From sequence record PZ239914.1: 44,852 bases of DNA. One strand, given 5' to 3'. Positions 10,992 to 41,729 of this stretch are shown here, in pieces. Numbering within the stretch: the first letter of the stretch is position 1; each line of letters opens with the position of its first letter. The position numbers and the translations under genes were made by a program. The notes beneath the pieces are model-generated. The model did no database searches, had not been told where the DNA came from, and worked only from the letters and a program-made list of their open reading frames with translations. The DNA is from a phage.

Positions 10992-11780
10992 CTACCCCTT
11001 AATTAATTTGGACCCTGGAAAACCGCCGAAGTCCAGCACCGCCGCTTTTGGATCCGCAAGACCTTGTCCAAAACGAAGATAGCAGTCCGACAAGCATCCG
11101 CCGCATCGGTCCATATTCATCGAGATGACTTCGTTTCCGCGCTCGTCGTAGTATTTGATGCCCGGCTTCGCAAGGTTCCATGTGCAACCGTCCCCGCTGG
11201 CGTACTTCCCATTTAACGCCCATTCGCACATGTTCATGATCTGGCGGCGTGGAACTACTTGCCCCTCCATATCCGCGGGTGAGGATAATGCGAAGGTGAT
11301 TTGCTTGCCCGGATTGCGCCCGACCTGTGAGTCGATGTAATACTCCTGGACACGTTTTTGCGTCGGGTCCGGGTCCGATCCGTTATCCAGGAACTTAGCG
11401 AACGTGTCAATGATCTCAACCTTCGCGCCAAGTAGCTGGTCGTGATTCAGCGACAGCCTGGTGATTATGCCGCCAATATCAACGATGGTCAGCTGCGGTT
11501 CTGCTGCCGTTGATGTGGAGAAGTTGAGGCCGGACAAATCGAAGGGCCAAAATTCGAACTCCTGCCCGCCGAAGAAGATGGATTTAGGTTTTAGCTTGTC
11601 CTCGTCACCACCCGCCGCGGCAATATCCCCGGCAGTGTGCGGAATAAAGCAGTAGTGAAAATAGTGATGACCCGCGCCGATCGCGCCGTCGCCGGGTTCC
11701 ACGTCCTGCGCGTCAATGTGAATCAGGCGAACGCGGCCAGATGGGTCAAAGCGCGTCGCCTCACGATATAGTTTATTCAT
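10992..11780 (-). CDS. minor tail protein (lambda L-like) with C-terminal cysteine cluster
   Basis: 262 aa; C-terminal Cys cluster (C-x-n-C-x-n-CGGCLSDC) consistent with the Fe-S site described for lambda gpL; synteny. Confidence 0.75.
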   Translation of the reverse strand: MNKLYREATRFDPSGRVRLIHIDAQDVEPGDGAIGAGHHYFHYCFIPHTAGDIAAAGGDEDKLKPKSIFFGGQEFEFWPFDLSGLNFSTSTAAEPQLTIVDIGGIITRLSLNHDQLLGAKVEIIDTFAKFLDNGSDPDPTQKRVQEYYIDSQVGRNPGKQITFALSSPADMEGQVVPRRQIMNMCEWALNGKYASGDGCTWNLAKPGIKYYDERGNEVISMNMDRCGGCLSDCYLRFGQGLADPKAAVLDFGGFPGSKLIKG

Positions 11781-12411: not shown

Positions 12412-15054
12412 TCATCGTTTGTAAAGTACACCACCCGGTTTCGTCGCCTTCACGATCTCGGCCTTGACCGACTCGGTGATTTGCTTTCCGAACGCCTGCG
12501 CGGTGCGCGGGTCTGGACCGCTAACACTGGTATCCGTCTTACCGGTCCCCATGTTAACGTTGGTCGTTACAATCATCCCCCCGCCTACACCGGCAGCGGC
12601 AACGCCCAGTTTCCCGTCTGGCCCGCGCTTCAGTGGCATGATGGCTTCGGGTCCGGCCTCACCCATCAATCCTGCGCCCTTAGCGAACGCCTGGACGCCA
12701 TAACTGAAAAAGGTGGGCTGGCTTACCACTTGCCCCGAATAGGCCGCGAGGTTGCCCCCTGCGTACGCTCCGCCGTCCGCATTCTTAGTGAGGCCGGAAA
12801 AGATAGCGCCGAACAATCCGTTTTTGCCGCCGTCGCCACCGAAAGCGCTAACGATGGATTTGAACGCCTGCGAGGTAGCCAGCTTTATTAATTCGCTCAG
12901 AATGGACTTAACCATATCTTTTGCGTTCAGCTTGCCTGTCTCGAAAAACTCGTTCATCGTGTCCTGCATAGCGCCGAACGTGAATTTTGTGAGTGACGTC
13001 ATCTGCGTATAGCCGTTACCCATTTCATCAACGCTATCCTTAAGCCCGCGGCTGAAGCCATCCCATAGCGAGGCGTTAGCACCGGTCTGTGCTTCCTGCA
13101 CTTCGCGCAGCTTAGACACCGCCAGGTCAATATCGGTATCGCTAGCGCCCACCCGCTTAAGGCGGTCAATCAGCTGCAATTCTTCGCGCAGGTTAGCCGC
13201 TTCGCGAGTGGAAAGCGCATAGCCCGCAGCGGTGGCTTTTAGCTCGGCGTTCTGGTTCTTAACGAAGGCGTCGATCTGCGCGTGCGCCTTGACCTGCTTC
13301 TCTTTCGCGTCCAGCAATTTGGCTTCTTCGACGATCTGCTCGCGTACTTCCTTCACGCGTCCGAATTCGACCATCTGCTGCTTTTCTGCTGCCGTTAGTG
13401 CTCTTTCTTTGCTTGCTGCGATTAACTGCTCATTATCCGCGATCAGCTTGTTTAGGGCCGCCTGCGCGCGTTGCGTGCGGGTCTGCGTCGATGCGTTGGC
13501 TTCGATCTGCTTTCCAGACTCACGAAGCTGGGCTAATTCGCTTCGCGCGACTTCCAGCATTTTCAGCCCGGCATCGACTCGAACAGCGGCGGCCTTCTTC
13601 GGGGCGGGGTCTTTGTAACGCTCGTTTACCTGCTTCACCGCCTCGGCAAGCTCTTTCTCGTCAATCACGCCGCGCTTATTAAGCAAATTGAGGCGGGCGA
13701 TCTCGTCGGCTCGCCTCTTCGCGTTGGTTGCGTACTCCTTCTCGAACGCGGCGCGGTCGCGGGCGGTGCGGTTGGCCTCTTCGTTCGCCTTTGCTGCTTC
13801 GTCCGCGGCACTTGCGTTGTCTCGCTCGGCACGGTTACGCAGGGTGAGCGACGCCACTACTTTTTCCTGGGCTACCAGTTCGCTGTAAAGCATGTTAATA
13901 CGCGCTTTCTGCGCTTCGGTCATCACCCCACCGGCAGCGTTTACCGCTTTCATCTCGGCATAGTAAGCCGTGGTCAGTCGCTGCAATGATTCACGCGCTT
14001 TCATCTCTGACTCATTCGAGGACTGCGCGCGTCCAACATCCAGGATGGCATCCCACATAGATTTAGCTGCCGATGTAACGACGTTCATCGACCGCTCAAG
14101 CGTACCCATGTTGGACTTAATATCGTTGGTCATAGTGGTGAACGACGCCGCGGCGGTTTTGTTAGCCAATGCAACCGCGTCTGTCTCGCGACCCATATCC
14201 ACAAGCGACTGCACCTGCTGGATCTGCGCTTCGTTTACGACGTGATACTTATCCGCCAATGCTCGCAAGCCGCCTACCGGGTCGGTTGACAGCTTCGCCA
14301 CCGCCGCGACCACATCCTCGACCGGCTGGCTGGACACCTTCGCAAAGTCATTCACCACTTTCGCCAGCGTGCCGAAGTCCGCACCCGCTTTCACACCAGC
14401 CGCCGCCAGCGCCTGGATTGTGTCACGCGTCTTGCGGAACGACCCACCCATGCGCTCGGCGTTCTCGGATAGCACCAGGATCTGGTTTGCCGTCAGGCCG
14501 GAAATGTTACCGGAAAGTGCCAGCGTCTTGTTAAGCGCGGCGACCTGGTTCTCTGCGCGGGACGTAATTGCCACGCCCACGCCTAACGTTGCCGTTACGG
14601 CGGCAAGGCCGATCCCTACTGGGCCGAGGAAGCCAGCAACATAACGCAGCGTGTTACCCAGTCCGCCGAATGCCCCAGTTAGCTGCGGTAACTGCTGAAG
14701 CATGACGCGGTGGACCGGCATCCCCATCTCAAGCGTAACTGCGATATCCTGTAACTGGAATGCGGCGTTACGCGAGGCAAAGCCCAGGTTTTTGGTCGAC
14801 ATGCCTAACCGGTTTGCAAGTCGCTCCTGTTTCGTCATACCGTCGGCGGCGCGCTGCGATTCGTTCGCCAGCTTCTCCATTCCGCCCGCGGCGTCACTCG
14901 TCACCTTTTTGGATTTGCCGAGTGTGTCGTTTAATTTCTTAACCTTGTTTTCTGTGTTCTCGGATTTCTGTGCGAATGAATCAAGCACAGTATTCGCCGT
15001 TCTGATTTGTGCAACATCCGCCTTTAGCGTGATGCCTGCTGCTTGATCTGCCAT
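12412..15054 (-). CDS. tail tape measure protein
   Basis: 880 aa, Ala/Gln/Lys-rich helical; Gly-rich hydrophobic segments; position between G-T and M. Confidence 0.85.
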   Translation of the reverse strand: MADQAAGITLKADVAQIRTANTVLDSFAQKSENTENKVKKLNDTLGKSKKVTSDAAGGMEKLANESQRAADGMTKQERLANRLGMSTKNLGFASRNAAFQLQDIAVTLEMGMPVHRVMLQQLPQLTGAFGGLGNTLRYVAGFLGPVGIGLAAVTATLGVGVAITSRAENQVAALNKTLALSGNISGLTANQILVLSENAERMGGSFRKTRDTIQALAAAGVKAGADFGTLAKVVNDFAKVSSQPVEDVVAAVAKLSTDPVGGLRALADKYHVVNEAQIQQVQSLVDMGRETDAVALANKTAAASFTTMTNDIKSNMGTLERSMNVVTSAAKSMWDAILDVGRAQSSNESEMKARESLQRLTTAYYAEMKAVNAAGGVMTEAQKARINMLYSELVAQEKVVASLTLRNRAERDNASAADEAAKANEEANRTARDRAAFEKEYATNAKRRADEIARLNLLNKRGVIDEKELAEAVKQVNERYKDPAPKKAAAVRVDAGLKMLEVARSELAQLRESGKQIEANASTQTRTQRAQAALNKLIADNEQLIAASKERALTAAEKQQMVEFGRVKEVREQIVEEAKLLDAKEKQVKAHAQIDAFVKNQNAELKATAAGYALSTREAANLREELQLIDRLKRVGASDTDIDLAVSKLREVQEAQTGANASLWDGFSRGLKDSVDEMGNGYTQMTSLTKFTFGAMQDTMNEFFETGKLNAKDMVKSILSELIKLATSQAFKSIVSAFGGDGGKNGLFGAIFSGLTKNADGGAYAGGNLAAYSGQVVSQPTFFSYGVQAFAKGAGLMGEAGPEAIMPLKRGPDGKLGVAAAGVGGGMIVTTNVNMGTGKTDTSVSGPDPRTAQAFGKQITESVKAEIVKATKPGGVLYKR

Positions 15055-15117
15055 TATGCAGTCCCCTTTTTTATGCAGTTGCCGGTTGACATTGTATCAG
15101 CGAATTTAAAACAAACC

Positions 15118-15291
15118 TTATGCAGTCTCAGACGAGGGGGGCCGTTGACCCCCGTCTAGTCTGAAAGACTGGGCTTTGTCCCGCTTGTCCCGATCGGCTG
15201 AAAACCGCGGCAGCACTGGCGGGGACGTGGTGCTGTCCCGCTTTGTCCCGCTCCTTGTTTGTCCCGCTTTCTGTCCCGCTCAGTTTATGCA
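15118..15291. repeat. iteron-rich noncoding repeat element, copy A
   Basis: About 174 bp, roughly 85% identical to 32339-32512; starts TTATGCAGTCTCAGACGAGGGGGGCC with nested hairpins, then six direct TGTCCCGCT-type units, ends AGTTTATGCA. Confidence 0.8.
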
Positions 15292-15439
15292 CGAAATACG
15301 AATAGGTATGCACATTTGTGGGGTGGGACAAAACGGGACGTCCCGCTTGTCCCGCTTTTAGATTATGCAATGGTAGTGATTAGATATGCGGTTTTGCAGG
15401 GGCGGGACAAAACGGGACGCCCCGATCAGTCCCGCTTCA
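15292..15439. repeat. additional direct and inverted GTCCCGC/GGGAC iterons extending copy A
   Basis: GGGACAAAACGGGAC at 15325-15339 and 15405-15419 (inverted) plus direct GTCCCGC units at 15340, 15349 and 15430. Confidence 0.7.
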
Positions 15440-15763
15440 TTATGCTGGGTTCTGCTGCGCCATCTCATCAAGCGCGATTCGTTCCATTAGCTTGATATCT
15501 TTAAACGCTCGCTGCTCGTTTTCTACACCGTGCATCTTAAATAACCACTCCAGCACGCCGTAGTCGATGCCGTATGCGCCACCAAATCCTGTGCGCCATT
15601 GCGTGGAGCAATCTGTGAAGACTGCGACTACCTTCGCGTTGTCGGGCCATAGCGCAACAGGCGGACAAACATCTTCGGGGGCCGCGCCCCATAAACTTGC
15701 GGCTAAATCTTCGGAGGGTGGCGGCGGGCCATAAAAGCGTCGCGCCGCCTCAATTAGTTTTTT
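15440..15763 (-). CDS. tail assembly chaperone T-like extension, expressed by -1 frameshift as a G-T fusion
   Basis: 105 sense codons open in the -1 frame from the slip site to the TAA at 15440-15442; no ATG-initiated ORF of 60 aa or more; -1 frame closed by TGA just upstream. Confidence 0.65.
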   Translation of the reverse strand, partial: KKLIEAARRFYGPPPPSEDLAASLWGAAPEDVCPPVALWPDNAKVVAVFTDCSTQWRTGFGGAYGIDYGVLEWLFKMHGVENEQRAFKDIKLMERIALDEMAQQNPA

Positions 15764-16116
15764 TCACGCAACCCCATCAGTTCGAGATAGTACGACGTGT
15801 GGAACACACCGAACGCGCGTGGATAGTTGACCACCAGGCGGCGGACGTTCTCCGCGTTAAATTCGTCCGGCAGATTCCAGCCTTCTGCGACGTGCATGAT
15901 GGCCTCGACCATAACGTTAAAGCCGTCCGGGTCATTGTCGTCATATTCCGATAGCTTTCGTTCAGTTTCCTGCATGGTTTGCGAAAATTCGTCGATCGGG
16001 CGGTGGCGGACGGTAAACGTCATCTTGCCCGGCTCGTTCTCACCAGGGCGCGGAATCTCAATCGGCAGCTTAAAGGTTGGCTTAGGGTCAAGTGTGAAGA
16101 GTGGTGCTTTAGCCAT
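15754..16116 (-). CDS. tail assembly chaperone (lambda G-like)
   Basis: 120 aa from the ATG at 16116 (GGAGA RBS); between the major tail gene and the tape measure; ends in the slippery site. Confidence 0.7.
   Translation of the reverse strand: MAKAPLFTLDPKPTFKLPIEIPRPGENEPGKMTFTVRHRPIDEFSQTMQETERKLSEYDDNDPDGFNVMVEAIMHVAEGWNLPDEFNAENVRRLVVNYPRAFGVFHTSYYLELMGLREKN
15757..15763 (-). other. programmed -1 ribosomal frameshift heptamer A_AAA_AAC
   Basis: Minus-strand GAA AAA AAC TAA at the end of the G-like ORF; textbook X_XXY_YYZ site two codons before the stop. Confidence 0.65.
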
Positions 16117-16131
16117 TGTAGTATTCTCCAA

Positions 16132-16156
16132 TAAAAAAGGGGCCGTGCTGGCCCCA
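16132..16156 (-). terminator. intrinsic terminator/attenuator after the major tail protein gene
   Basis: Minus strand GGGGCC-agcac-GGCCCC followed by U6, directly upstream of the G RBS. Confidence 0.55.
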
Positions 16157-16185
16157 TATTATCACTCGCTATTTAAGCGACCAAA

Positions 16186-16911
16186 TCAAGACAACGCCTC
16201 GACCAGATCCTTACGGTAGATAACCATATCAGACTGCATGGTCAGAGTGGACTGCACCGTTTCCACGTTGTTTACTTCAGCGGAAGGAATCTTCTGGAAA
16301 GATACCTTTGCCGGGTAAATACGGATCTCACCTTTGCCGCTTGCTGCCGCTGGGTTAGTGAACTTAATCACAGTGGTTTTCTGTGTGTCGTCCAGGTCTT
16401 CCAGGATTGGGCGGATCGGGTCTTCTTCGTCGTGGGTGAAAGTGTAAGTCTGTACCAACGGGTTTTTCGTGGTGTTCAGACTGATTGCGGTGTTCACCTG
16501 CAACGGCTGGAAGGTAGTCGTCTGCTGGTCGCCACCAGACACGGCAACGTTAGTAATGAAAGGGAAGTCGATAAAGCTCGACACCTTCACCACTTCGCCC
16601 GGAGTGCCTACGCTGAAAGCGCCGGTCGGGTATTTTGTGACGTCTTCGGTGTCGAAGCGCGCCAGCGTAACGTCGTTGGTGTCCACTTTACCCACGATGA
16701 ATGCGCGGTTAAGCGCTCGGACCCACGGGGTTTTAGTGAACATAACCACGTCGCCAACAACCAGGCCATGCGAAGCCGCACAGGTAATTACGCAACCTTG
16801 CGTAAGGTCGGAGATCGACGCGGCGGCGTTGGTAGCTGCCGTAACAGCGATGCCGCTGCCCAGTACGGACCCAATCTGGACGCTGGACCCGTTAGGAAGT
16901 TGATAACCCAT
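16186..16911 (-). CDS. major tail protein (by position)
   Basis: 241 aa, CAGGAG RBS; upstream of G/G-T and followed by a terminator, as expected for a highly expressed tail tube gene. Confidence 0.6.
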   Translation of the reverse strand: MGYQLPNGSSVQIGSVLGSGIAVTAATNAAASISDLTQGCVITCAASHGLVVGDVVMFTKTPWVRALNRAFIVGKVDTNDVTLARFDTEDVTKYPTGAFSVGTPGEVVKVSSFIDFPFITNVAVSGGDQQTTTFQPLQVNTAISLNTTKNPLVQTYTFTHDEEDPIRPILEDLDDTQKTTVIKFTNPAAASGKGEIRIYPAKVSFQKIPSAEVNNVETVQSTLTMQSDMVIYRKDLVEALS

Positions 16912-20998: not shown

Positions 20999-21028
20999 TT
21001 GCATTGCGGATGTTGGTTGCAGTATATT
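20999..21028 (+). promoter_or_regulatory. candidate sigma70-type promoter (TTGCAT-18-TATATT) with two TTGGTTGCA motifs
   Basis: AT-rich upstream tract at 20961-20998; motifs at 21012-21020 and 21026-21034; drives the plus genes at 21064-22182. Confidence 0.45.
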
Positions 21029-21063
21029 GGTTGCACACCAACAGAGATATGAAGGAAAACAAA

Positions 21064-31363: not shown

Positions 31364-31524
31364 TCTGTCAATCTCCTGTAGTTACGAACTAATGTGAGGC
31401 GCGAGATAGTGCGGCGAGTACCACACTTAGGGTGTGAAATAGTCACGTTGCCGTTTGCTTCTTCTGTCACGAAGTAAGTCAGTCGCGTGGCCTTACTCCG
31501 CCAGCGTTCAGGTTGCTTGTTCAT
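31360..31524 (-). CDS. possible small protein (54 aa)
   Basis: ATG at 31524; MNKQPERWRSKATRLTYFVTEEANGNVTISHPKCGTRRTISRLTLVRNYRRLTE; below the ORF-track cutoff. Confidence 0.3.
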   Translation of the reverse strand: MNKQPERWRSKATRLTYFVTEEANGNVTISHPKCGTRRTISRLTLVRNYRRLTE

Positions 31525-31790
31525 TTTGCCAGTCTCCAGTGTTTGCCTACCCGCTCAATGGCGGGCTTTCGGCGTAATGTAATACGGATCCCCATTGGTT
31601 GCAAGGAAGTCCGCACCCTGAAATCGTGTTGTGCTGCGAACTGGTGCAAGTAGCGAGTCTGCGTCAACGGCTTCACGTCATCGCGATAGCACCAGAACAC
31701 TGATTCGCCCGCATTCGCATTCCTAGCCCATATTCGTATGCAATGCAGTGGAATATGCCACGAAAGCTGTTTCGCTCGTCTACGGCCCAT
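31521..31790 (-). CDS. hypothetical basic protein (89 aa)
   Basis: AAGGGG RBS; contains a TTGGTTGCA copy at 31594-31603. Confidence 0.35.
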   Translation of the reverse strand: MGRRRAKQLSWHIPLHCIRIWARNANAGESVFWCYRDDVKPLTQTRYLHQFAAQHDFRVRTSLQPMGIRITLRRKPAIERVGKHWRLAK

Positions 31791-31799
31791 TTTGGCCCC

Positions 31800-32126
31800 T
31801 TATTTCGCAAGCTGGGCGAATAGTTCGCGCTGGGCTTTAATCCGGGCGACGTTAGTCACTGCCGTCTCGCCGATCCCGAAGCGATACGCCAGGCGCTCAC
31901 GGGCAAATGCCAGCGCGTAGTCCTGGATAGCGTTCGCCAACGGCTGGATCTCTTCCATAGTGTCTAAGCGGTCCTCCAGCATACAGGCGATGGCCTGCTG
32001 CGTGACGCGAACAACGGACCACGCTGCCGATAGTCTTTCGATCGCTTCCGCTCCCTCACTGGCGAACTCCGCCGCTTCTTGCGCCGCCGCCATAGCCATT
32101 GCGTAATTCCAGATAATCGCTTTCAT
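31800..32126 (-). CDS. hypothetical protein (108 aa)
   Basis: GGAGG RBS; preceded by the candidate promoter at 32155-32183. Confidence 0.5.
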   Translation of the reverse strand: MKAIIWNYAMAMAAAQEAAEFASEGAEAIERLSAAWSVVRVTQQAIACMLEDRLDTMEEIQPLANAIQDYALAFARERLAYRFGIGETAVTNVARIKAQRELFAQLAK

Positions 32127-32154
32127 TGTTCAGTCCTCCGGTTGGTGTGCAACC

Positions 32155-32183
32155 AAAATATCAGGGTGCCAGGCTGAATGCAA
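32155..32183 (-). promoter_or_regulatory. candidate sigma70-type promoter (TTGCAT-17-TATTTT) with two TTGGTTGCA motifs
   Basis: Minus-strand motifs at 32148-32156 and 32179-32188. Confidence 0.4.
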
Positions 32184-32338
32184 CCAATATTAATCACGCG
32201 CATGAAAAAGTTGATCGCTATCTGCTGCAACTGCAAACTGCATTTTCTGCCCACCATTCAGCAACTCGCATTGGTTGCCTAGTTCATCCGCGACCGCACT
32301 TCGCATCATGCTGCCGTGTATTTTGCAATCCCCGGATT

Positions 32339-32512
32339 TTATGCAGTCTCAGACGAGGGGGGCCATTGACCCCCGTCTAGTCTGAAAGACTGGTAGTTGT
32401 CCCGCTTGTCCCGCTCCCCTCCAGGCCGCGTCCTCCGGGGCGGGACGGGGGTGCTGTCCCGTTTTGTCCCGCCTCTTGTTTGTCCCGCTTTTTGTCCCGC
32501 TTAGTTTATGCA
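32339..32512. repeat. iteron-rich noncoding repeat element, copy B
   Basis: Same 5' hairpin module and six TGTCCCGCT-type iterons as copy A, with a divergent central spacer; between the primase end and the 31800-32126 gene. Confidence 0.8.
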
Positions 32513-32586
32513 ATAAAACTGCATAACTATTCACTATATTCACACTACACGGCAACCAATACGACCAGATAAAAACACTCAAAATG

Positions 32587-32669
32587 GCAACCAATGCGCG
32601 CAAAATTTAATCTTTTAGCGATATGGGAATTCCCATATCGGCAACCAATACGCGCAAAATTTAATCTTT
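32587..32669. repeat. 30-bp direct repeats flanking a 20-bp perfect palindrome at the primase 3' end
   Basis: GGCAACCAAT(G/A)CGCGCAAAATTTAATCTTT at 32587-32616 and 32640-32669; palindrome GATATGGGAATTCCCATATC at 32620-32639; second repeat contains the primase stop codon. Confidence 0.7.
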
Positions 32670-34925
32670 CAGGTCGTCATCGGTCGCAGAAAGCGTGATG
32701 GGTATATTCGTTTTTATGACGATATTAGACGACCCATAGATGGCCCCGGTGTGCGGGTCTGTATAAAAACCTAACACTCCGCGCTCCACCATATCGTCAA
32801 TGGCCTTCGTCGATGTGCCACCTTTCGCTAGTCCAGCCTGGCGGACGATTGCCGATTTACTGAATCCGGTATGATCCGGGTTATCTTCCATCAGTTTTTC
32901 CAGTGCCGCATAAAGCACTTTCTCTTTTTCGTTGCGCGGGCCTGCGGCGTTCTCATCCTTAACTGCGGCTTTTCCAGCGGACTTCGCCTGCTCAATGGCG
33001 AACGGTGCCAGGGCGACCGGTACGAGGTAAAGAGTCTCGTCGCGTGGCGTGGATGCAATCGGCTTGACGTCCCAGCCGGCAACCACATCGCCGAAGTCCG
33101 GCCCGGTGCTGGTGGACTGGTGTGCCTCGAACGCTTCGGACTTGCGGAGATCCACCTTAACCTTGCACTTGAGTAGTACGAAGCCGCGCGGCGCTTGCTT
33201 GATGCCGTTACGCGCCTTTTCGTGATACAGGTTCAATTGGCCGGGCTGATTGTCGTCCGGTTGCTCCAGGAAGAACGCAGAATCAACAGCACCATGCAGC
33301 GCGCCGGACCCGCGGGGGGTTCTGCTGCCGTTTGCGCCCTTCGCCGGGTGATGGATGACGCCCGCGCTGCCGCCTGTATTTTCCGCAATGGCCTTCAGCG
33401 CTTTGACCACTTCGCCCATATCGCTGGCGTTGTTCTCGTCGAACGGTTTAGCATCGGCGGACCGCAACGCTACAGTCTGGTTGAGTGAGTCGAACGCCAC
33501 CAGGCCAACCGGTTCGCCGTTAGCGGTGCGGTTGATGAAGCTGATAACTTCACGCAATCCTGACTTGCTGGTGATATCCCAGCCGCGTGATTGCAGATCG
33601 ATAATGTGCAGCTTGTCCAGGTCGTGCTCGTATTTAATCTGCAATGCTTCCTTACGCTGGTTGGAGGCTTCGCCGCCTTCCGCGTCGAAATAGAAGTTAT
33701 GGCACTGGACGACCTTCGCACCGCCAAACGGGATACCGGCAGATACGGACGCCATCTGGCCCAGCACATAGAACGATTTACCGATGTTCGACTCACCGGC
33801 AAGATACCAGGTCGATTTGAAGTTGACCAGGCCTTCTATGATCGGGTCGTGCTTACTGAACAGTGCGACCGGTTCGTTGTCCAGGTCGGCATCGGTACAT
33901 ACGCCGTACTCGTCGCCATCTCCGACCGCATCGACGATATGCTCATAGCACGATTCCACCTCCTCGTCGTCCAGTCCAGGGAGGATGGCGGCGATTTGCT
34001 TACGTGACATGTTGTGCGGTTCGACGTTCAGGTGGTCCGGGATCCCTATAAGACGTAGCGCCAGGTGCTGGTGTCTGTTCAGTTCCGAGCAACACTCGTT
34101 GCCGGTGTGCATACACTTGAAACGGATCTCGCCATCCTTAACCATGATAGCCGTCGACCCTTCGCCGCTGTGCAGGTGTTCGTTAGGGCACGGCACTTCA
34201 TAGCCCCGACCGGACGACAGTGGCTCGAATCCTGCCTGGAAGCACCAATCCAGAATGCCGTCAGCCACACCATCATCGCCCTGGGTTAGTTCGCGGCGTA
34301 CTTCCTCTTTTTCCATTCCCAGCTTATCAGCCAGGCGAAGCAGACGACGGACACGGGCGCGCTTTCCGTAATGGCATTTAATAACAGACTGCTGGTGTGG
34401 CAGGTACATTAGGCGGTTAGTGTCTTTCGTGCAATCGTCGAAGTCCACATCTGACAGGCCCAGTTGGTGTAATAGTGCATACTGGACGCGGCCCAGGTCT
34501 TCAGCCGGTACAGGCTTGTCAGTGAGCACCAGGAAACGAGCGCAACGCGTGCCGCCTTTCAGCGGGTGGCGGTCGCCGGTAGTGGTGTGAAATACATGTT
34601 CCAGTCCCGCGTCGATGAAAGCCTTACGGCAGCGGCGCAGGGTGCGGGTGTCGGTGCGGTCAATATCGAAGAACAGGATCGAGCGGTCCACAGCACTGGT
34701 CTTGCGGCGTAAGCCGTCACTGGTATACGCCACGATGCCATCGGCCTTACGCTTGCGTCGCGCATACTCGGCTTTATCTTCCGTTTTGTTGATATGCACC
34801 GAGGAGATTTCTTTCGCATCATTGATAAATTCGAAAAACTCTTCGGTAGTCATCTGGAAGTTTTCCGCCCGGGCTTTTTCGCCTTTTTTAGCGGGTCGTG
34901 TTACAGCGAATTTAATTAAGCTCAT
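32661..34925 (-). CDS. DNA primase / P-loop helicase fusion protein
   Basis: 754 aa; Walker A GESNIGKS; Cys/His-rich zinc-binding-like segment CPNEHLHSGEGSTAIMVKDGEIRFKCMHTGNECC. Confidence 0.75.
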   Translation of the reverse strand: MSLIKFAVTRPAKKGEKARAENFQMTTEEFFEFINDAKEISSVHINKTEDKAEYARRKRKADGIVAYTSDGLRRKTSAVDRSILFFDIDRTDTRTLRRCRKAFIDAGLEHVFHTTTGDRHPLKGGTRCARFLVLTDKPVPAEDLGRVQYALLHQLGLSDVDFDDCTKDTNRLMYLPHQQSVIKCHYGKRARVRRLLRLADKLGMEKEEVRRELTQGDDGVADGILDWCFQAGFEPLSSGRGYEVPCPNEHLHSGEGSTAIMVKDGEIRFKCMHTGNECCSELNRHQHLALRLIGIPDHLNVEPHNMSRKQIAAILPGLDDEEVESCYEHIVDAVGDGDEYGVCTDADLDNEPVALFSKHDPIIEGLVNFKSTWYLAGESNIGKSFYVLGQMASVSAGIPFGGAKVVQCHNFYFDAEGGEASNQRKEALQIKYEHDLDKLHIIDLQSRGWDITSKSGLREVISFINRTANGEPVGLVAFDSLNQTVALRSADAKPFDENNASDMGEVVKALKAIAENTGGSAGVIHHPAKGANGSRTPRGSGALHGAVDSAFFLEQPDDNQPGQLNLYHEKARNGIKQAPRGFVLLKCKVKVDLRKSEAFEAHQSTSTGPDFGDVVAGWDVKPIASTPRDETLYLVPVALAPFAIEQAKSAGKAAVKDENAAGPRNEKEKVLYAALEKLMEDNPDHTGFSKSAIVRQAGLAKGGTSTKAIDDMVERGVLGFYTDPHTGAIYGSSNIVIKTNIPITLSATDDDLKD

Positions 34926-34935
34926 TGCCGTGGCC

Positions 34936-35265
34936 TTACTTAGAAGTTTTATTATTGCGTACCCAGGAGCGCACTGTGCTCTGATTAATTCCGGTCAACT
35001 CGGCGATCATTGCCCAGGACTTTCCCTCATTGCGCAAACGGATAACCTGCTTTTTGTATTCTTCCATTTCTTCATTGTGTTTTTGCAGCTTGCTCGCTGC
35101 CGTACCGTTGAGCAATTCCAGCCTGGCGCGTAATTCTTTTTCGGCACTGCGCAGACGTTCGATTTCAAATAACACCGCCCCCACGGCATCTGTATAAGCC
35201 CATGACCGGCTTGTCTCACTGCAAACAGTCTTCGTTAACATTTCGATTGCGTCGTTTACATTCAT
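34936..35265 (-). CDS. HTH DNA-binding protein (109 aa)
   Basis: C-terminal HTH-like KSWAMIAELTGINQSTVRSWV; coiled-coil N-terminus; GAGGG RBS; first gene of the leftward arm. Confidence 0.55.
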   Translation of the reverse strand: MNVNDAIEMLTKTVCSETSRSWAYTDAVGAVLFEIERLRSAEKELRARLELLNGTAASKLQKHNEEMEEYKKQVIRLRNEGKSWAMIAELTGINQSTVRSWVRNNKTSK

Positions 35266-35296
35266 TGCTCTGCCCTCAGTTGGTTAATGACCAACG

Positions 35297-35325
35297 AAAC
35301 TACACCCAAAACTGCACGGTGTCAA
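35297..35325 (-). promoter_or_regulatory. candidate leftward promoter (TTGACA-17-TAGTTT)
   Basis: Minus-strand perfect -35 TTGACA with a weak -10; about 25 nt upstream of the HTH gene RBS. Confidence 0.3.
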
Positions 35326-38336: not shown

Positions 38337-38426
38337 CCGCTCAGGCGCAACCAAGTAAATTGGCAACCAAGCCGAACGGGGTGGCTTCCAATAACCCCGA
38401 TACATGTGAAAATGAGGAATTGGAAA

Positions 38427-39441: not shown

Positions 39442-41729
39442 AAGACTTCGAACGCCTGTTTCTCGACACAGAGACATTTAGCGATGTGGACCTGAAGAAA
39501 GTAGGCGCTTACGCCTACGCGGAGCACCCATCGACCGAGATTATGATTTGCACCTACGCCATCGACGAGGGCCGCGTGCAGACATGGGATTGCACCGAGT
39601 CCCCCACAATGCCGCGTGAACTGCGCAAGGCGCTCCGCCGGGTATCCCGCCAGAAAGCAAAAATCGTGATGGCTAACGGCCTCCTGTTTGACCGCCTGGT
39701 TATTCGCGAGAAGTGGGGTATTGACCTGCCGGTAAGCCAGATCGAAGACACCATGATTATGGCCTTTCGCCACGCGCTGCCCGGAAGCCTCGATATGCAG
39801 TGCCTGGTGCTGGGCGTTGACGCGGAGCACGCGAAGGATAAGACTGGCAAGGCGCTGATCAAACGGTTCTGTAAGCCTACCCCTAAGACCTACAAAATCC
39901 GCCGCTACACTCGCGAGACTCACCCAGAAGAGTGGGCCAAATTTCTGCGCTATGCCGCGCTGGATATTATCGCGATGCGTGAAGTCTACTGGCGCATACC
40001 GGACTGGGGTAATACCCCGAAAGAAGATGAAATCCTGCTCATCGACCAGTTGATTAACGACCGCGGCTTCTACGTAGACGTTGACCTGGCGAACGCCGCG
40101 ATCCGGGCGGTGCAGGCGCATAAGGAAGAACTGAAAGAAGAAGCCTGGGAGCGATTTGGCGGTAAGCTGACCGGCAATGACTTCCTGCCAATCCTGCGTG
40201 ATATCGCCCCGGCGTTCACGATCCACAACGCGCAGAAATCCACGCTTAACGACCTTCTTGAAGACCCTGACTTCCCCGACGAAGGCAAAGCGCTTATCGA
40301 AATGCGCCTCGGAGCGTCATCAACGGCATCGTCTAAGTACAATCCGCTCGTTAACGGCCTATCCGCCGATGGACGCCGCCGTGGGTGTATTCAGTATGGT
40401 GGCGCAAAGCGCACGCTGCGCTGGGCCGGTAAAGGCTTCCAGCCGCAAAACCTGGCACGTGGCGAGTACAGCGACGACCACGAAGGGAAGATTAAACGCC
40501 GCGAGGGTGAAAGCGACGTCTCGTTTTGGGTCCGGTCGCACATGCTCACCAACGGCATCAACTCCCTGTTACGCGGGACCGCACACTGGGCGTACGATAT
40601 ATCGAAGCTGACCGCCTCGACCGTTCGCGGGTGCATTATTCCGGCGAAGGGCAAGAAGTTTGTCGTAGCGGACTACGCCAACGTGGAAGGGCGTGGACTT
40701 GCCTGGATCGCTGGCGAGAAAACAGCGTTAATGGTCTTTAAGGCCGGTCGCGATATCTATTGCGAGACTGCCGGTAAGATGTTCGGCCTGGACCCGGACT
40801 ACATTAAAGCCAACCGCAAGGACTTACGCCAGATCGGTAAGGCGTGCGAATTGGGACTGGGCTATGGTGGCGGCGTGGCAGCGTTCTTGCAGTTCGCTAA
40901 AAACCTGGGCCTCGACCTTTACACTATGGCGGACGTGATGAAAGGCACGTTCCCGGATCACATTTGGGCGGCGGCGAAACGTGGTTATGAGTACGCCCGC
41001 ATTAACGAAGCGAAGCGCCCGCCGAAGCTTGGTAAGAAAGACGAGCGCCCAACCTACATACTGCCTAAAAACGTTTGGCTGACGTGCGACGCGATCAAAC
41101 GCATGTGGCGTGAGGCTCACCCGAAGACGGTCGCCTTTTGGGCCGAGCTTGAGGACGCGGTGTTGTGTGCAATCCGCAATCCGGGCAAAGCATACTGGGC
41201 TGGCGCTAACGTTCGCCCGGACGGCAGGAAAGCGCTTAAGATTGTGCGCACGAAGGCGAAGCACGACCCAACCTTCGACGAGGAGCGCGACGACCCGAAC
41301 GCCGCGGGGTGGTGGTTGAAAATTGAGTTGCCGTCGGGGCGCATCATGAGCTACCCCGGCATCGCGTTGTCTGTCACGACCGAGATCGACGAAGACACCG
41401 GCAAGAAGCGCACCAGCACCCGCATTAAATATCAGGGCGAGAATCAGACGACGCGCCAGTGGGGCTTCCAGTATACCTACGGCGGCAAACTGACGGAGAA
41501 CATCGTACAGGCGTTGTGCCGCGATATTCTCGCATGGTCCATGCCTGGCGTTGAGGCCGCGGGGTATGAAATCGTCCTGTCGGTGCACGATGAATTGATC
41601 ACCGAAGTGCCGGATACTGACGACTACACGACCGAGGAGCTATGCGCGCTGATGTGCGACCTGCCTGTTTGGGCGAAAGGGTTCCCACTCGCCGCAGAAG
41701 GCGACATTATGTACAGGTACAGGAAGTAA
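39438..41729 (+). CDS. family A DNA polymerase with N-terminal 3'-5' exonuclease domain
   Basis: Exo I-like LFLDTETFS; motif A-like VADYANVEGRG; motif B-like RQIGKACELGLGYGGG; motif C-like SVHDEL. Confidence 0.9.
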   Translation: MKDFERLFLDTETFSDVDLKKVGAYAYAEHPSTEIMICTYAIDEGRVQTWDCTESPTMPRELRKALRRVSRQKAKIVMANGLLFDRLVIREKWGIDLPVSQIEDTMIMAFRHALPGSLDMQCLVLGVDAEHAKDKTGKALIKRFCKPTPKTYKIRRYTRETHPEEWAKFLRYAALDIIAMREVYWRIPDWGNTPKEDEILLIDQLINDRGFYVDVDLANAAIRAVQAHKEELKEEAWERFGGKLTGNDFLPILRDIAPAFTIHNAQKSTLNDLLEDPDFPDEGKALIEMRLGASSTASSKYNPLVNGLSADGRRRGCIQYGGAKRTLRWAGKGFQPQNLARGEYSDDHEGKIKRREGESDVSFWVRSHMLTNGINSLLRGTAHWAYDISKLTASTVRGCIIPAKGKKFVVADYANVEGRGLAWIAGEKTALMVFKAGRDIYCETAGKMFGLDPDYIKANRKDLRQIGKACELGLGYGGGVAAFLQFAKNLGLDLYTMADVMKGTFPDHIWAAAKRGYEYARINEAKRPPKLGKKDERPTYILPKNVWLTCDAIKRMWREAHPKTVAFWAELEDAVLCAIRNPGKAYWAGANVRPDGRKALKIVRTKAKHDPTFDEERDDPNAAGWWLKIELPSGRIMSYPGIALSVTTEIDEDTGKKRTSTRIKYQGENQTTRQWGFQYTYGGKLTENIVQALCRDILAWSMPGVEAAGYEIVLSVHDELITEVPDTDDYTTEELCALMCDLPVWAKGFPLAAEGDIMYRYRK

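Follow-up and report, generated by a model that had tools for sequence, protein, structure and literature searches.

The element and its setting

What does a compact block of short repeats and a hairpin do for a phage that carries it directly behind its primase-helicase gene, and again among its tail genes? We addressed this question in sequence record PZ239914.1, the entire 44,852-nucleotide stretch of which is referred to here as the window. The 44.85-kb window represents a siphophage of E. coli from the HK578/SO-1-like group, genus Dhillonvirus; megablast searches with positions 31500-35300 and 14500-16500 matched about 158 phage records in GenBank (80-96% identity), almost all of them from Dhillonviruses of Escherichia or Shigella. 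The element under study, copy B (32339-32512), is located 149 bp past the stop codon of the primase-helicase gene (32661-34925, minus strand) and upstream of a small gene (31800-32126), within a part of the genome, from about 3.3 to 35.3 kb, whose genes are carried on the minus strand. Copy A (15118-15291, plus strand) is found 17.2 kb away in the same orientation, between the tail assembly chaperone and tape measure genes, and has the hairpin and six iterons in the copy-B spacing around a spacer of a different, A type. We consider it probable, at roughly 60%, that the element is a cis-acting binding and loading site of the phage's own primase-helicase, which would make it an iteron-type replication origin module. 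This reading comes from comparative analysis of sequences and of predicted protein folds.

Iterons, boxes and a hairpin recur in the same arrangement in both copies

Copy B begins with a TTATGCA box (32339-32345, plus strand) that bounds the repeat unit on the left. It is followed by a 49-nt imperfect palindrome (32344-32392), a potential hairpin or cruciform with outer (CAGTCT/AGACTG), middle (CAGAC/GTCTG) and inner (GGGGG/CCCCC) stems and a variable loop. Iterons 1 and 2, TGTCCCGCT TGTCCCGCT, stand in a 9-bp register on the plus strand (32398-32415) and are separated from the remaining four by a 39-bp, G+C-rich B-type spacer with a central CCGCG (32416-32454). Iterons 3 to 6, TGTCCCGTT, TGTCCCGCC, TGTCCCGCT and TGTCCCGCT, occupy 32455-32501 on the plus strand with starts 10, 16 and 12 bp apart. 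Four of the six direct iterons are thus exact copies of TGTCCCGCT (32398, 32407, 32481 and 32493), and the two that begin at 32455 and 32465 have one mismatch each. A seventh iteron, inverted within the spacer (CGTCCCGCC, 32438-32446, minus strand), had been missed by an earlier reading of the sequence (the earlier note). The right end (32505-32526) consists of the box TTTATGCA, in which TTATGCA itself is at 32506-32512, and then an inverted TGCATAA, together forming the A+T-rich block TTTATGCAATAAAACTGCATAA. The TTATGCA boxes agree with the DnaA box TTATNCACA at seven to eight of nine positions (TTATGCAGT and TTATGCAAT in copy B, TTATGCACG and GTATGCACA in copy A) and deviate at positions 8-9.

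As single-stranded DNA the hairpin at 32344-32392 is predicted to fold at -14.3 kcal/mol on the plus strand (z -4.1), a stability reached by none of 200 shuffles, and at -13.3 kcal/mol on the minus strand (z -3.9). The iteron part, folded as iterons 3-6, is no more stable as a single strand than its shuffles (z -0.15 and +0.40).

Pairwise alignment of copies A and B gave 89% identity over 205 columns, and the spacing of the iterons is the same in both (9-48-10-16-12 bp); the hairpin and six iterons that the earlier note had seen in each copy are present as it described them. Iterons are clustered far beyond chance. In the window TGTCCCGCT occurs 28 times with at most one mismatch, where 11.2 occurrences are expected and none of 100 shuffles reached 28. 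The GTCCCG core is found 37 times, 19 of them inside the two regions, and region B holds seven cores in 101 bp against a maximum of three per 120 bp in 200 simulated sequences. When the window was scanned with a profile of the 19 copies considered in the following section, two full matches were obtained (E 6e-63 and 5e-62), and beyond these there were partial iteron modules at 15294-15444 and no further degenerate copies. These modules adjoin the right side of copy A and consist of two inverted-plus-direct iteron pairs arranged as palindromes, with more TATGCA boxes.

Stems, iterons and boxes are conserved while the sequence between them varies

In order to compare the element across the genus, we aligned 20 copies from 15 Dhillonvirus genomes, and identities were taken from 19 of these, excluding a duplicated copy in phage SM_S22. 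The hairpin arms are 95-100% identical within and between the two loci (95-99% for A versus B). Their loop is only 41-50% identical among B copies and between A and B, and the A copies share a single loop (93%). Iterons 3-6 are 94-98% identical within and between copy types. Iterons 1-2 are less so (74-78%), because in some genomes the two stand in an 8-bp register (GCTGTCCCGCTGTCCCG). The left TTATGCA box is 91-96% identical, with 91% for A versus B, and the right box TTTATGCA is identical in all 19 copies. In contrast, the linkers drift and the outer left flank falls to 18% identity between A and B. The earlier note had called the central spacer divergent and quoted CCCCTCCAGGCCGCGTCCTCCGGGGCGGGACGGGGG from it; that segment is present (32416-32451), and the spacer is only 64% identical between A and B, as opposed to 93% among A copies and 76% among B copies. 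Each spacer type is therefore stable at its own locus.

Such a pattern, in which arms, iterons and boxes are kept while the loop, the linkers, the spacer and the flanks vary, is what selection on the stems, iterons and boxes leaves behind. The proposal that selection on the iterons and hairpin, rather than a recent simple duplication, accounts for the likeness of the two copies was thus borne out by the identity pattern in the 15 genomes. The two loci are not fully independent, since locus B of Escherichia phage SM_S22 (L058) has a spacer of the A type and an iteron block duplicated in tandem, which indicates exchange between the copies by recombination or gene conversion. Every Dhillonvirus checked has the element at both loci, and eiAU-183, an Eiauvirus, has related elements there.

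Iteron sequence changes with the predicted recognition helix in relatives

Orthologues of the helicase were located on their own contigs and in GenBank phages (L062, L063, L064, L065, L066, L067, PhiSTP1 and eiAU-183), and in all eight relatives the gene is followed on its 3' side by a noncoding gap containing an iteron array. The iteron itself differs among them. The closest relative, L062, with a helicase 69% identical to that of the window, has a GTCCCGC iteron and the same hairpin with another loop. The iteron is TTGCGAGT or CTCGCAA in L063 and L064 (helicase 48-50% identical), GGGATCA in inverted pairs in L065 (46%), AGGGATAA in L066 and L067 (44%), GGGGAGA in the Cornellvirus PhiSTP1 (44%) and CGCCCCG in eiAU-183 (44%). 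Five iteron types are paired with particular classes of recognition helix in the predicted C-terminal winged helix of the protein: GGT[SN]T[KT]AI with GTCCCGC, [ST][GA][NH]Y[KG]K with TTGCGAGT/CTCGCAA, GGDRYKIL with GGGGAGA, GGNRRPA[ML] with GGGATAA and GGKRRPAI with GGGATCA. Iteron sequence therefore changes together with this predicted recognition helix.

The order of parts recurs even where the iterons differ, running from the gene through a (GAATAG)TTATGCA box to the iterons (n direct, one inverted, n direct) and a G+C hairpin. In relatives with other iterons an extended box, GAATAGTTATGCAG, stands between the helicase gene and the array. Boxes were located at 32339-32345, 32506-32526 and 15054-15369 in the window, at 17041 in L049 and at 3816-3980 in L066. 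Retention of the TTATGCA box where the iterons differ suggests that it has a conserved reader, either the primase/helicase core or a host factor. A homologous hairpin is found in L062 and in eiAU-183.

The two-locus layout is kept in eiAU-183, where long noncoding regions lie at the chaperone/tape-measure gap and after the helicase gene and share a 52-bp block (88% identity), CGCCCCG repeats, a TTATGCA box and the homologous GACGGGGG...CCCCTCGTC hairpin. PhiSTP1 has the gene-linked array only, and among the relatives examined the tail-operon copy was seen only in Dhillonvirus and Eiauvirus. Since a gene-linked array is present in all relatives examined and is the sole array in PhiSTP1, copy B appears to be at the ancestral position and copy A to be derived. 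The earlier note had called copy B the second copy; it is a true second instance of one element, but of the two it is probably the primary, gene-linked and ancestral one, with copy A a derived and long-maintained partner.

Tail assembly chaperone and tape measure genes normally abut. In the window, they are separated by 385 bp of noncoding sequence (15055-15439) between the tape measure gene (12412-15054) and the chaperone gene (15754-16131, Phage_TAC_4), whose frameshift extension ends near 15440. Besides copy A, this gap holds several TATGCA boxes and the extra inverted and direct iteron pairs. In eiAU-183 the gap at this position is even longer than 385 bp. A tblastn search with the tail chaperone, intended to pick up distant relatives in which a gap precedes the tape measure gene, yielded T1-like phages and thus no useful information.

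The same iteron follows helicase genes in unrelated viral contigs

An exact-word scan of IMG/VR for TTGTCCCGCTTGTCCCG yielded 44 loci, of which 30 were clustered, a cluster being defined as at least four GTCCCG cores. These clusters often included inverted copies and small G+C hairpins. Outside Dhillonvirus, 21 of 29 clusters abut the 3' end of a gene for an AAA_25-like helicase, and no such gene accompanies any of the 14 loci that lack a cluster. The helicase is the sole protein near the arrays that is common to these contigs and the window. The iteron logo, (T)TGTCCCGCT, is the same in 125 Dhillonvirus sites and in 231 sites of the other contigs, and in at least 21 unrelated viral contigs (from L005-L047) arrays of 5-18 copies of TGTCCCGCT stand right after AAA_25 primase/helicase genes. 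Together, these sequence comparisons show what appears to be an obligatory linkage of the arrays to the 3' end of AAA_25 helicase genes. One subgroup of contigs is close to p101 of Rhizobium phage 16-3 (L061, array 56250-56606).

The adjacent gene encodes a predicted primase-helicase with a C-terminal winged helix

The gene at 32661-34925 (minus strand) encodes a protein of 754 amino acids that was assigned by PHROG to 'replicative helicase-primase'. At the level of families and folds, it is predicted to combine an N-terminal archaeo-eukaryotic primase (AEP) domain, a Cys/His cluster, a RepA-like AAA_25 helicase and a C-terminal winged helix at about residues 666-737. Pfam detected AAA_25 alone (residues 357-531, E 2.4e-19), and the annotation of the Shashou ortholog cites an HHpred match to RepA (1NLF). 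An AlphaFold2 (AF2) model of residues 1-345 (mean pLDDT 80) matched the AEP domain of the cyanophage S-2L PrimPol (E 1.9e-5, probability 1.0), followed by LigD polymerase domains and the RSF1010 primase RepB' (3h20, probability 0.89, E 0.02). The label of primase given to this gene in the earlier note is thus supported by the AEP fold of the model, but at fold level only, as Pfam sees nothing other than AAA_25. The model of the last 150 residues has the order helix-helix-helix-strand-strand (pLDDT ~80), and its Foldseek matches were all winged-helix DNA binders (MarR/MepR-DNA, ScpB, histone H1 and ORC WH).

Immediately upstream of this gene is a gene for a small helix-turn-helix (HTH) protein of 109 amino acids (34936-35265, minus strand; Pfam HTH_23 and Sigma70_r4_2), which is an alternative candidate for the DNA binder or regulator. 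A small HTH gene occupies the same position in all relatives, in different families (HTH_3, HTH_31). GenBank records name the gene at 34936-35265 transposase, resolvase or 'recombination nuclease inhibitor gamma', while Pfam recognizes only an HTH_23/Sigma70_r4-type helix-turn-helix, and these names look unreliable.

A proposed role in loading the helicase

In the mechanism that we propose, the 754-aa protein, whose AEP primase, hexameric helicase of the RepA type and C-terminal winged helix are recognized at family and fold level, would itself bind the element. The winged helix would recognize the 9-bp TGTCCCGCT iterons, six direct and one inverted, as its position and co-variation suggest. 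Several bound protomers would then assemble the helicase ring without a separate loader, as in the Rep/PriRep proteins of staphylococcal pathogenicity islands (SaPIs) and in the alpha protein of P4. A melted or extruded single strand would be supplied by the conserved palindrome and the A+T-rich TTTATGCA...TGCATAA block. On this strand the AEP domain would lay the first primer, in analogy to RSF1010, whose RepB' primase uses the ssiA/ssiB hairpins, and the phage DNA polymerase A would extend that primer. Copy A would serve either as another origin or as a remote partner of copy B, in the manner of crr and ori in P4.

Several observations weigh against this role. The winged-helix assignment is moderate, with pLDDT ~80 over about 70 residues and a best Foldseek E of 5e-3. 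The upstream HTH protein also varies by lineage, so co-variation leaves it possible as the binder. The central spacer is G+C-rich and not the A+T-rich unwinding element typical of iteron origins, and the iterons are mostly in one orientation (six co-oriented, one inverted) instead of two opposed sets. The hairpin stems are invariant, which leaves no compensatory changes to count, so that covariation is uninformative and the pairing lacks that kind of support. GC and AT skew track gene orientation, with a cumulative minimum at ~35-36 kb where transcription diverges, and gave no origin signal. The C-terminal domain of the 16-3-like helicases (WR.EFY...KKAFQR) has no detectable homology to the Dhillonvirus winged helix (hhalign probability 0.15%); the same iteron beside helicases with unrelated C-termini implies either convergent specificity or that another part of the protein reads the iteron. 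Finally, no binding, origin-mapping or deletion experiments on Dhillonviruses were found in the literature searched.

A broader reading, which we put forward tentatively and think has the odds somewhat against it, is that Dhillonvirus and Eiauvirus replicate from two sites, a gene-linked origin B and a distal A, served by one fused AEP-primase/RepA-helicase/winged-helix protein, and that a single iteron is shared across many distantly related AAA_25 helicase lineages, that of Rhizobium phage 16-3 among them, by way of an unrecognized module or convergence. If so, the two sites would either work together, for instance through looping like that between ori and crr in P4, or act as twin origins, and the distal site would be permanently lodged between the tail chaperone and tape-measure genes of a virulent siphophage.

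Transcriptional control, titration and other explanations

The element could also be part of a transcriptional control region, which we regard as unlikely. The iterons would then be operators for the 109-aa HTH protein or for an autorepressing helicase winged helix, and the hairpin would attenuate or terminate read-through. Copy B would bound the replication genes against the downstream small and lysis genes, and copy A would gate expression of the tape measure. Consistent with this, both copies sit between genes, ahead of the one that follows, and face the same way with respect to transcription on the minus strand. The helicase gene of the window and its relatives invariably has a small HTH gene in front of it, and the equivalent small protein of pRN1 represses its replication operon (PMC4234260). 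The 16-3-like contigs are the exception, with no conserved small HTH gene upstream of their helicase, which argues against a regulator of this kind.

The surroundings of the element are also dense in an over-represented, operator- or promoter-like 8-mer, TTGGTTGC, which occurs 21 times in the window against 1.85 expected and is mostly intergenic. Its sites include 95-119, 2010-2029, 4918, 21013-21034, 28841, 32149-32278, 32552-32648, 35456 and 38347-38370, and they are often arranged in direct pairs, 14-17 bp apart, or form palindromes (TGCAACCAAtaggTTGGTTGCA; TTGGTgTGCAACCAA). Variants are found at the same places in relatives, namely TTGGCCGC in L064, TTGGCAGC in L065 and GCAACCAAC in eiAU-183, and the 8-mer probably serves a conserved regulator as operator or promoter element. 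Next to copy B, it is present in the rest of the intergenic region toward the small gene (32127-32338) at 32149-32156 (minus), 32180-32187 (minus) and 32271-32278 (plus), and between the element and the helicase stop codon (32527-32670) at 32552-32559, 32587-32594 and 32641-32648 (all minus). The earlier note had placed 'TTGGTTGCA-type promoters' for gene 31800-32126 here; the 8-mer behind this claim is real and over-represented, with two copies between the element and the gene, but a consensus scan of 31900-32800 found no sigma-70 promoter. Visual inspection of this region gave no more than a weak TTGCAT-N17-TATTTT.

As for transcription termination, the hairpin at 32344-32392 has no run of T/U on either strand, and the only two terminator-like matches arise from the inverted iteron and lie on the plus strand, which is antisense to the genes on both sides. 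Across unrelated phages the array stands behind the helicase gene irrespective of the gene on its other side, which fits a cis-site for the helicase better than an operon promoter.

In another scenario, which seems to us quite improbable, the arrays would be sites of negative control or pairing that titrate or 'handcuff' the initiator-helicase, like incA of P1, or a site of helicase-dependent recombination or late replication, with the true origin elsewhere. Two arrays of identical spacing in one genome, the extra iteron modules beside copy A, the recombination of copies in SM_S22 and a G+C-rich spacer that offers no obvious unwinding element would all suit such a role. However, a virulent phage that encodes a DNA polymerase needs little restraint of copy number, the window holds no other iteron cluster that could act as the real origin, and relatives such as PhiSTP1 have no array besides the gene-linked one.

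A structured noncoding RNA, a miniature mobile element or a packaging (pac) signal is very improbable: the hairpin is stable, the unit is bounded by short direct TTATGCA repeats like the target duplication of an insertion, and the GenBank assembly Kente breaks inside copy A, but an Rfam 15 scan of the whole window at gathering score gave no matches, a tRNA/tmRNA scan gave none, the iteron part folds with z ~0, 5,426 complete E. coli genomes contained no match, the element occupies two fixed loci only in the window and the same loci are filled in the other Dhillonviruses checked and in eiAU-183, and the terminase genes are far away. The small terminase of L062 is P22 gp3/Sf6-like by weak Pfam matches, and for such terminases pac is in or near the small terminase gene itself.

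Two sets of record ends near the element were considered as genome termini and rejected. The PTXU06, Zar3M and 101114B2 records have their ends about 110 bp away from copy B; the ends of PTXU06 are contiguous on the circular map and have no terminal repeat, and its opening is therefore arbitrary rather than a genome end or pac site. The record of Dhillonvirus sp. EcoIv6a_Kente (L052) starts and ends inside copy A with the middle absent, most likely as a result of assembly collapse at the repeat.

Two further repeats were observed between copy B and the primase-helicase gene. A direct repeat pair of about 31 bp (GGCAACCAAT[GA]CGCGCAAAATTTAATCTTT) is located at 32586-32616 and 32640-32670, the latter spanning the stop codon, and a perfect 20-bp palindrome, GATATGGGAATTCCCATATC (32620-32639), lies between its two members.

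Prior annotation and significance

The record of Sodalis phage SO-1 (NC_013600.1) already annotates the orthologous regions as repeat_region 'region A' (11214-11597, between gp16 and the tape measure gene) and 'region B' (40178-40657, after the helicase-primase gene), and describes direct, inverted and palindromic repeats and the similarity of the regions to each other. Other GenBank records have at most a small repeat_region, or nothing. In the literature searched, there were no papers that analyze these repeat regions, any Dhillonvirus or HK578 origin, or the iteron sequence, and the matches for HK578 concerned Argonaute defense only. Iteron origins beside initiator genes are a well-known kind of element. 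What is new is the comparative case for this group, the table of iterons and recognition helices, the conserved two-locus layout and the wide association of TGTCCCGCT with AAA_25.

Dhillonviruses are common coliphages that are used in model collections and in phage therapy work, and the element gives them a precise origin candidate of ~175 bp and one protein. It also suggests a simple rule by which the origins of a large phage group might be located, which is to look just 3' of the AAA_25 primase-helicase gene. The pairing of helices and iterons could be a starting point for studies of specificity, for orthogonal phage-derived replicons and for plasmid-borne origin decoys that block infection. 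A tail-operon copy kept across two genera, and a TGTCCCGCT iteron shared by proteins with unrelated C-termini, are oddities that could inform on helicase loading.

Comparison with known replication systems

In SaPIs, the C-terminal winged helix of Rep/PriRep binds 6-12 iterons immediately downstream of rep (PMC9371898). As in SaPI Rep and PriRep5, initiator and helicase would be joined in one protein with a C-terminal winged helix (the primase is fused as well in PriRep5), and as in the SaPI ori, the array is just downstream of the helicase open reading frame, with two iteron groups around a central spacer and a specificity that differs by lineage. Unlike the SaPI helicase, whose core is AAA+ (pre-sensor II insert clade, 3'-5'), the one predicted here is of the RecA-type AAA_25 family (RepA/DnaB-like). 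SaPI iterons are 5-6 bp long and opposed around an A+T-rich center, whereas those of the window are 9 bp long and mostly co-oriented, with a G+C-rich spacer and a conserved hairpin. A SaPI also has one ori, while here a second copy lies 17 kb away.

That second copy recalls P4, in which ori and crr are two separated clusters of the same repeat on one genome, a layout that in the present group is kept in eiAU-183. Both ori and crr are required in cis in P4. The C-terminal winged helix of the P4 alpha protein binds the ori repeats (Ziegelin & Lanka 1995; Yeo et al. 2002, as cited in PMC4234260), and alpha, like the protein predicted here, is one multifunctional primase-helicase with such a domain. 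The P4 primase is of the Toprim type and its helicase belongs to superfamily 3 (SF3), in contrast to the AEP primase and SF4-like helicase of the window, and the P4 repeat is TGTTCACC.

The oriV of RSF1010 combines direct iterons, a G+C-rich segment and hairpin-forming single-strand initiation (ssi) sites, two ssi hairpins being located on opposite strands. Direct iterons, a G+C-rich segment and a hairpin are likewise combined in the element, and the protein is predicted to have the same ingredients, namely an AAA_25 helicase of the RepA type and a primase domain whose AEP fold is like that of RepB'. RSF1010/R1162 uses RepA, RepB' and RepC at oriV (Scherzinger 1991 and Miao 1995, as cited in PMC4234260; PDB 3H20 and 1NLF). 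These are three proteins, of which RepC binds 20-bp iterons, whereas in the window one polypeptide would carry all three domains, each copy has a single near-palindromic hairpin instead of two ssi hairpins, and no RepC-like gene was seen.

The primase-helicase of the archaeal plasmid pRN1 uses a stem-loop origin downstream of its gene, and the authors of that work noted similar arrangements in some phages (PMC4234260). The order in pRN1 (orf56/orf904) is the same as here, with a gene for a small DNA-binding protein, then a large AEP primase-helicase with a winged helix and a structured element on the 3' side, which is essential in pRN1. In contrast to the window, where iterons dominate beside a 49-nt hairpin, pRN1 has an SF3 helicase and a stem-loop of ~100 nt without iterons. 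By analogy, the element thus resembles the SaPI, P4, RSF1010 and pRN1 systems in the way it would work and is a member of none, as it has no A+T-rich center or opposed iteron sets, no AAA+ or SF3 core, no Toprim primase and no separate RepC.

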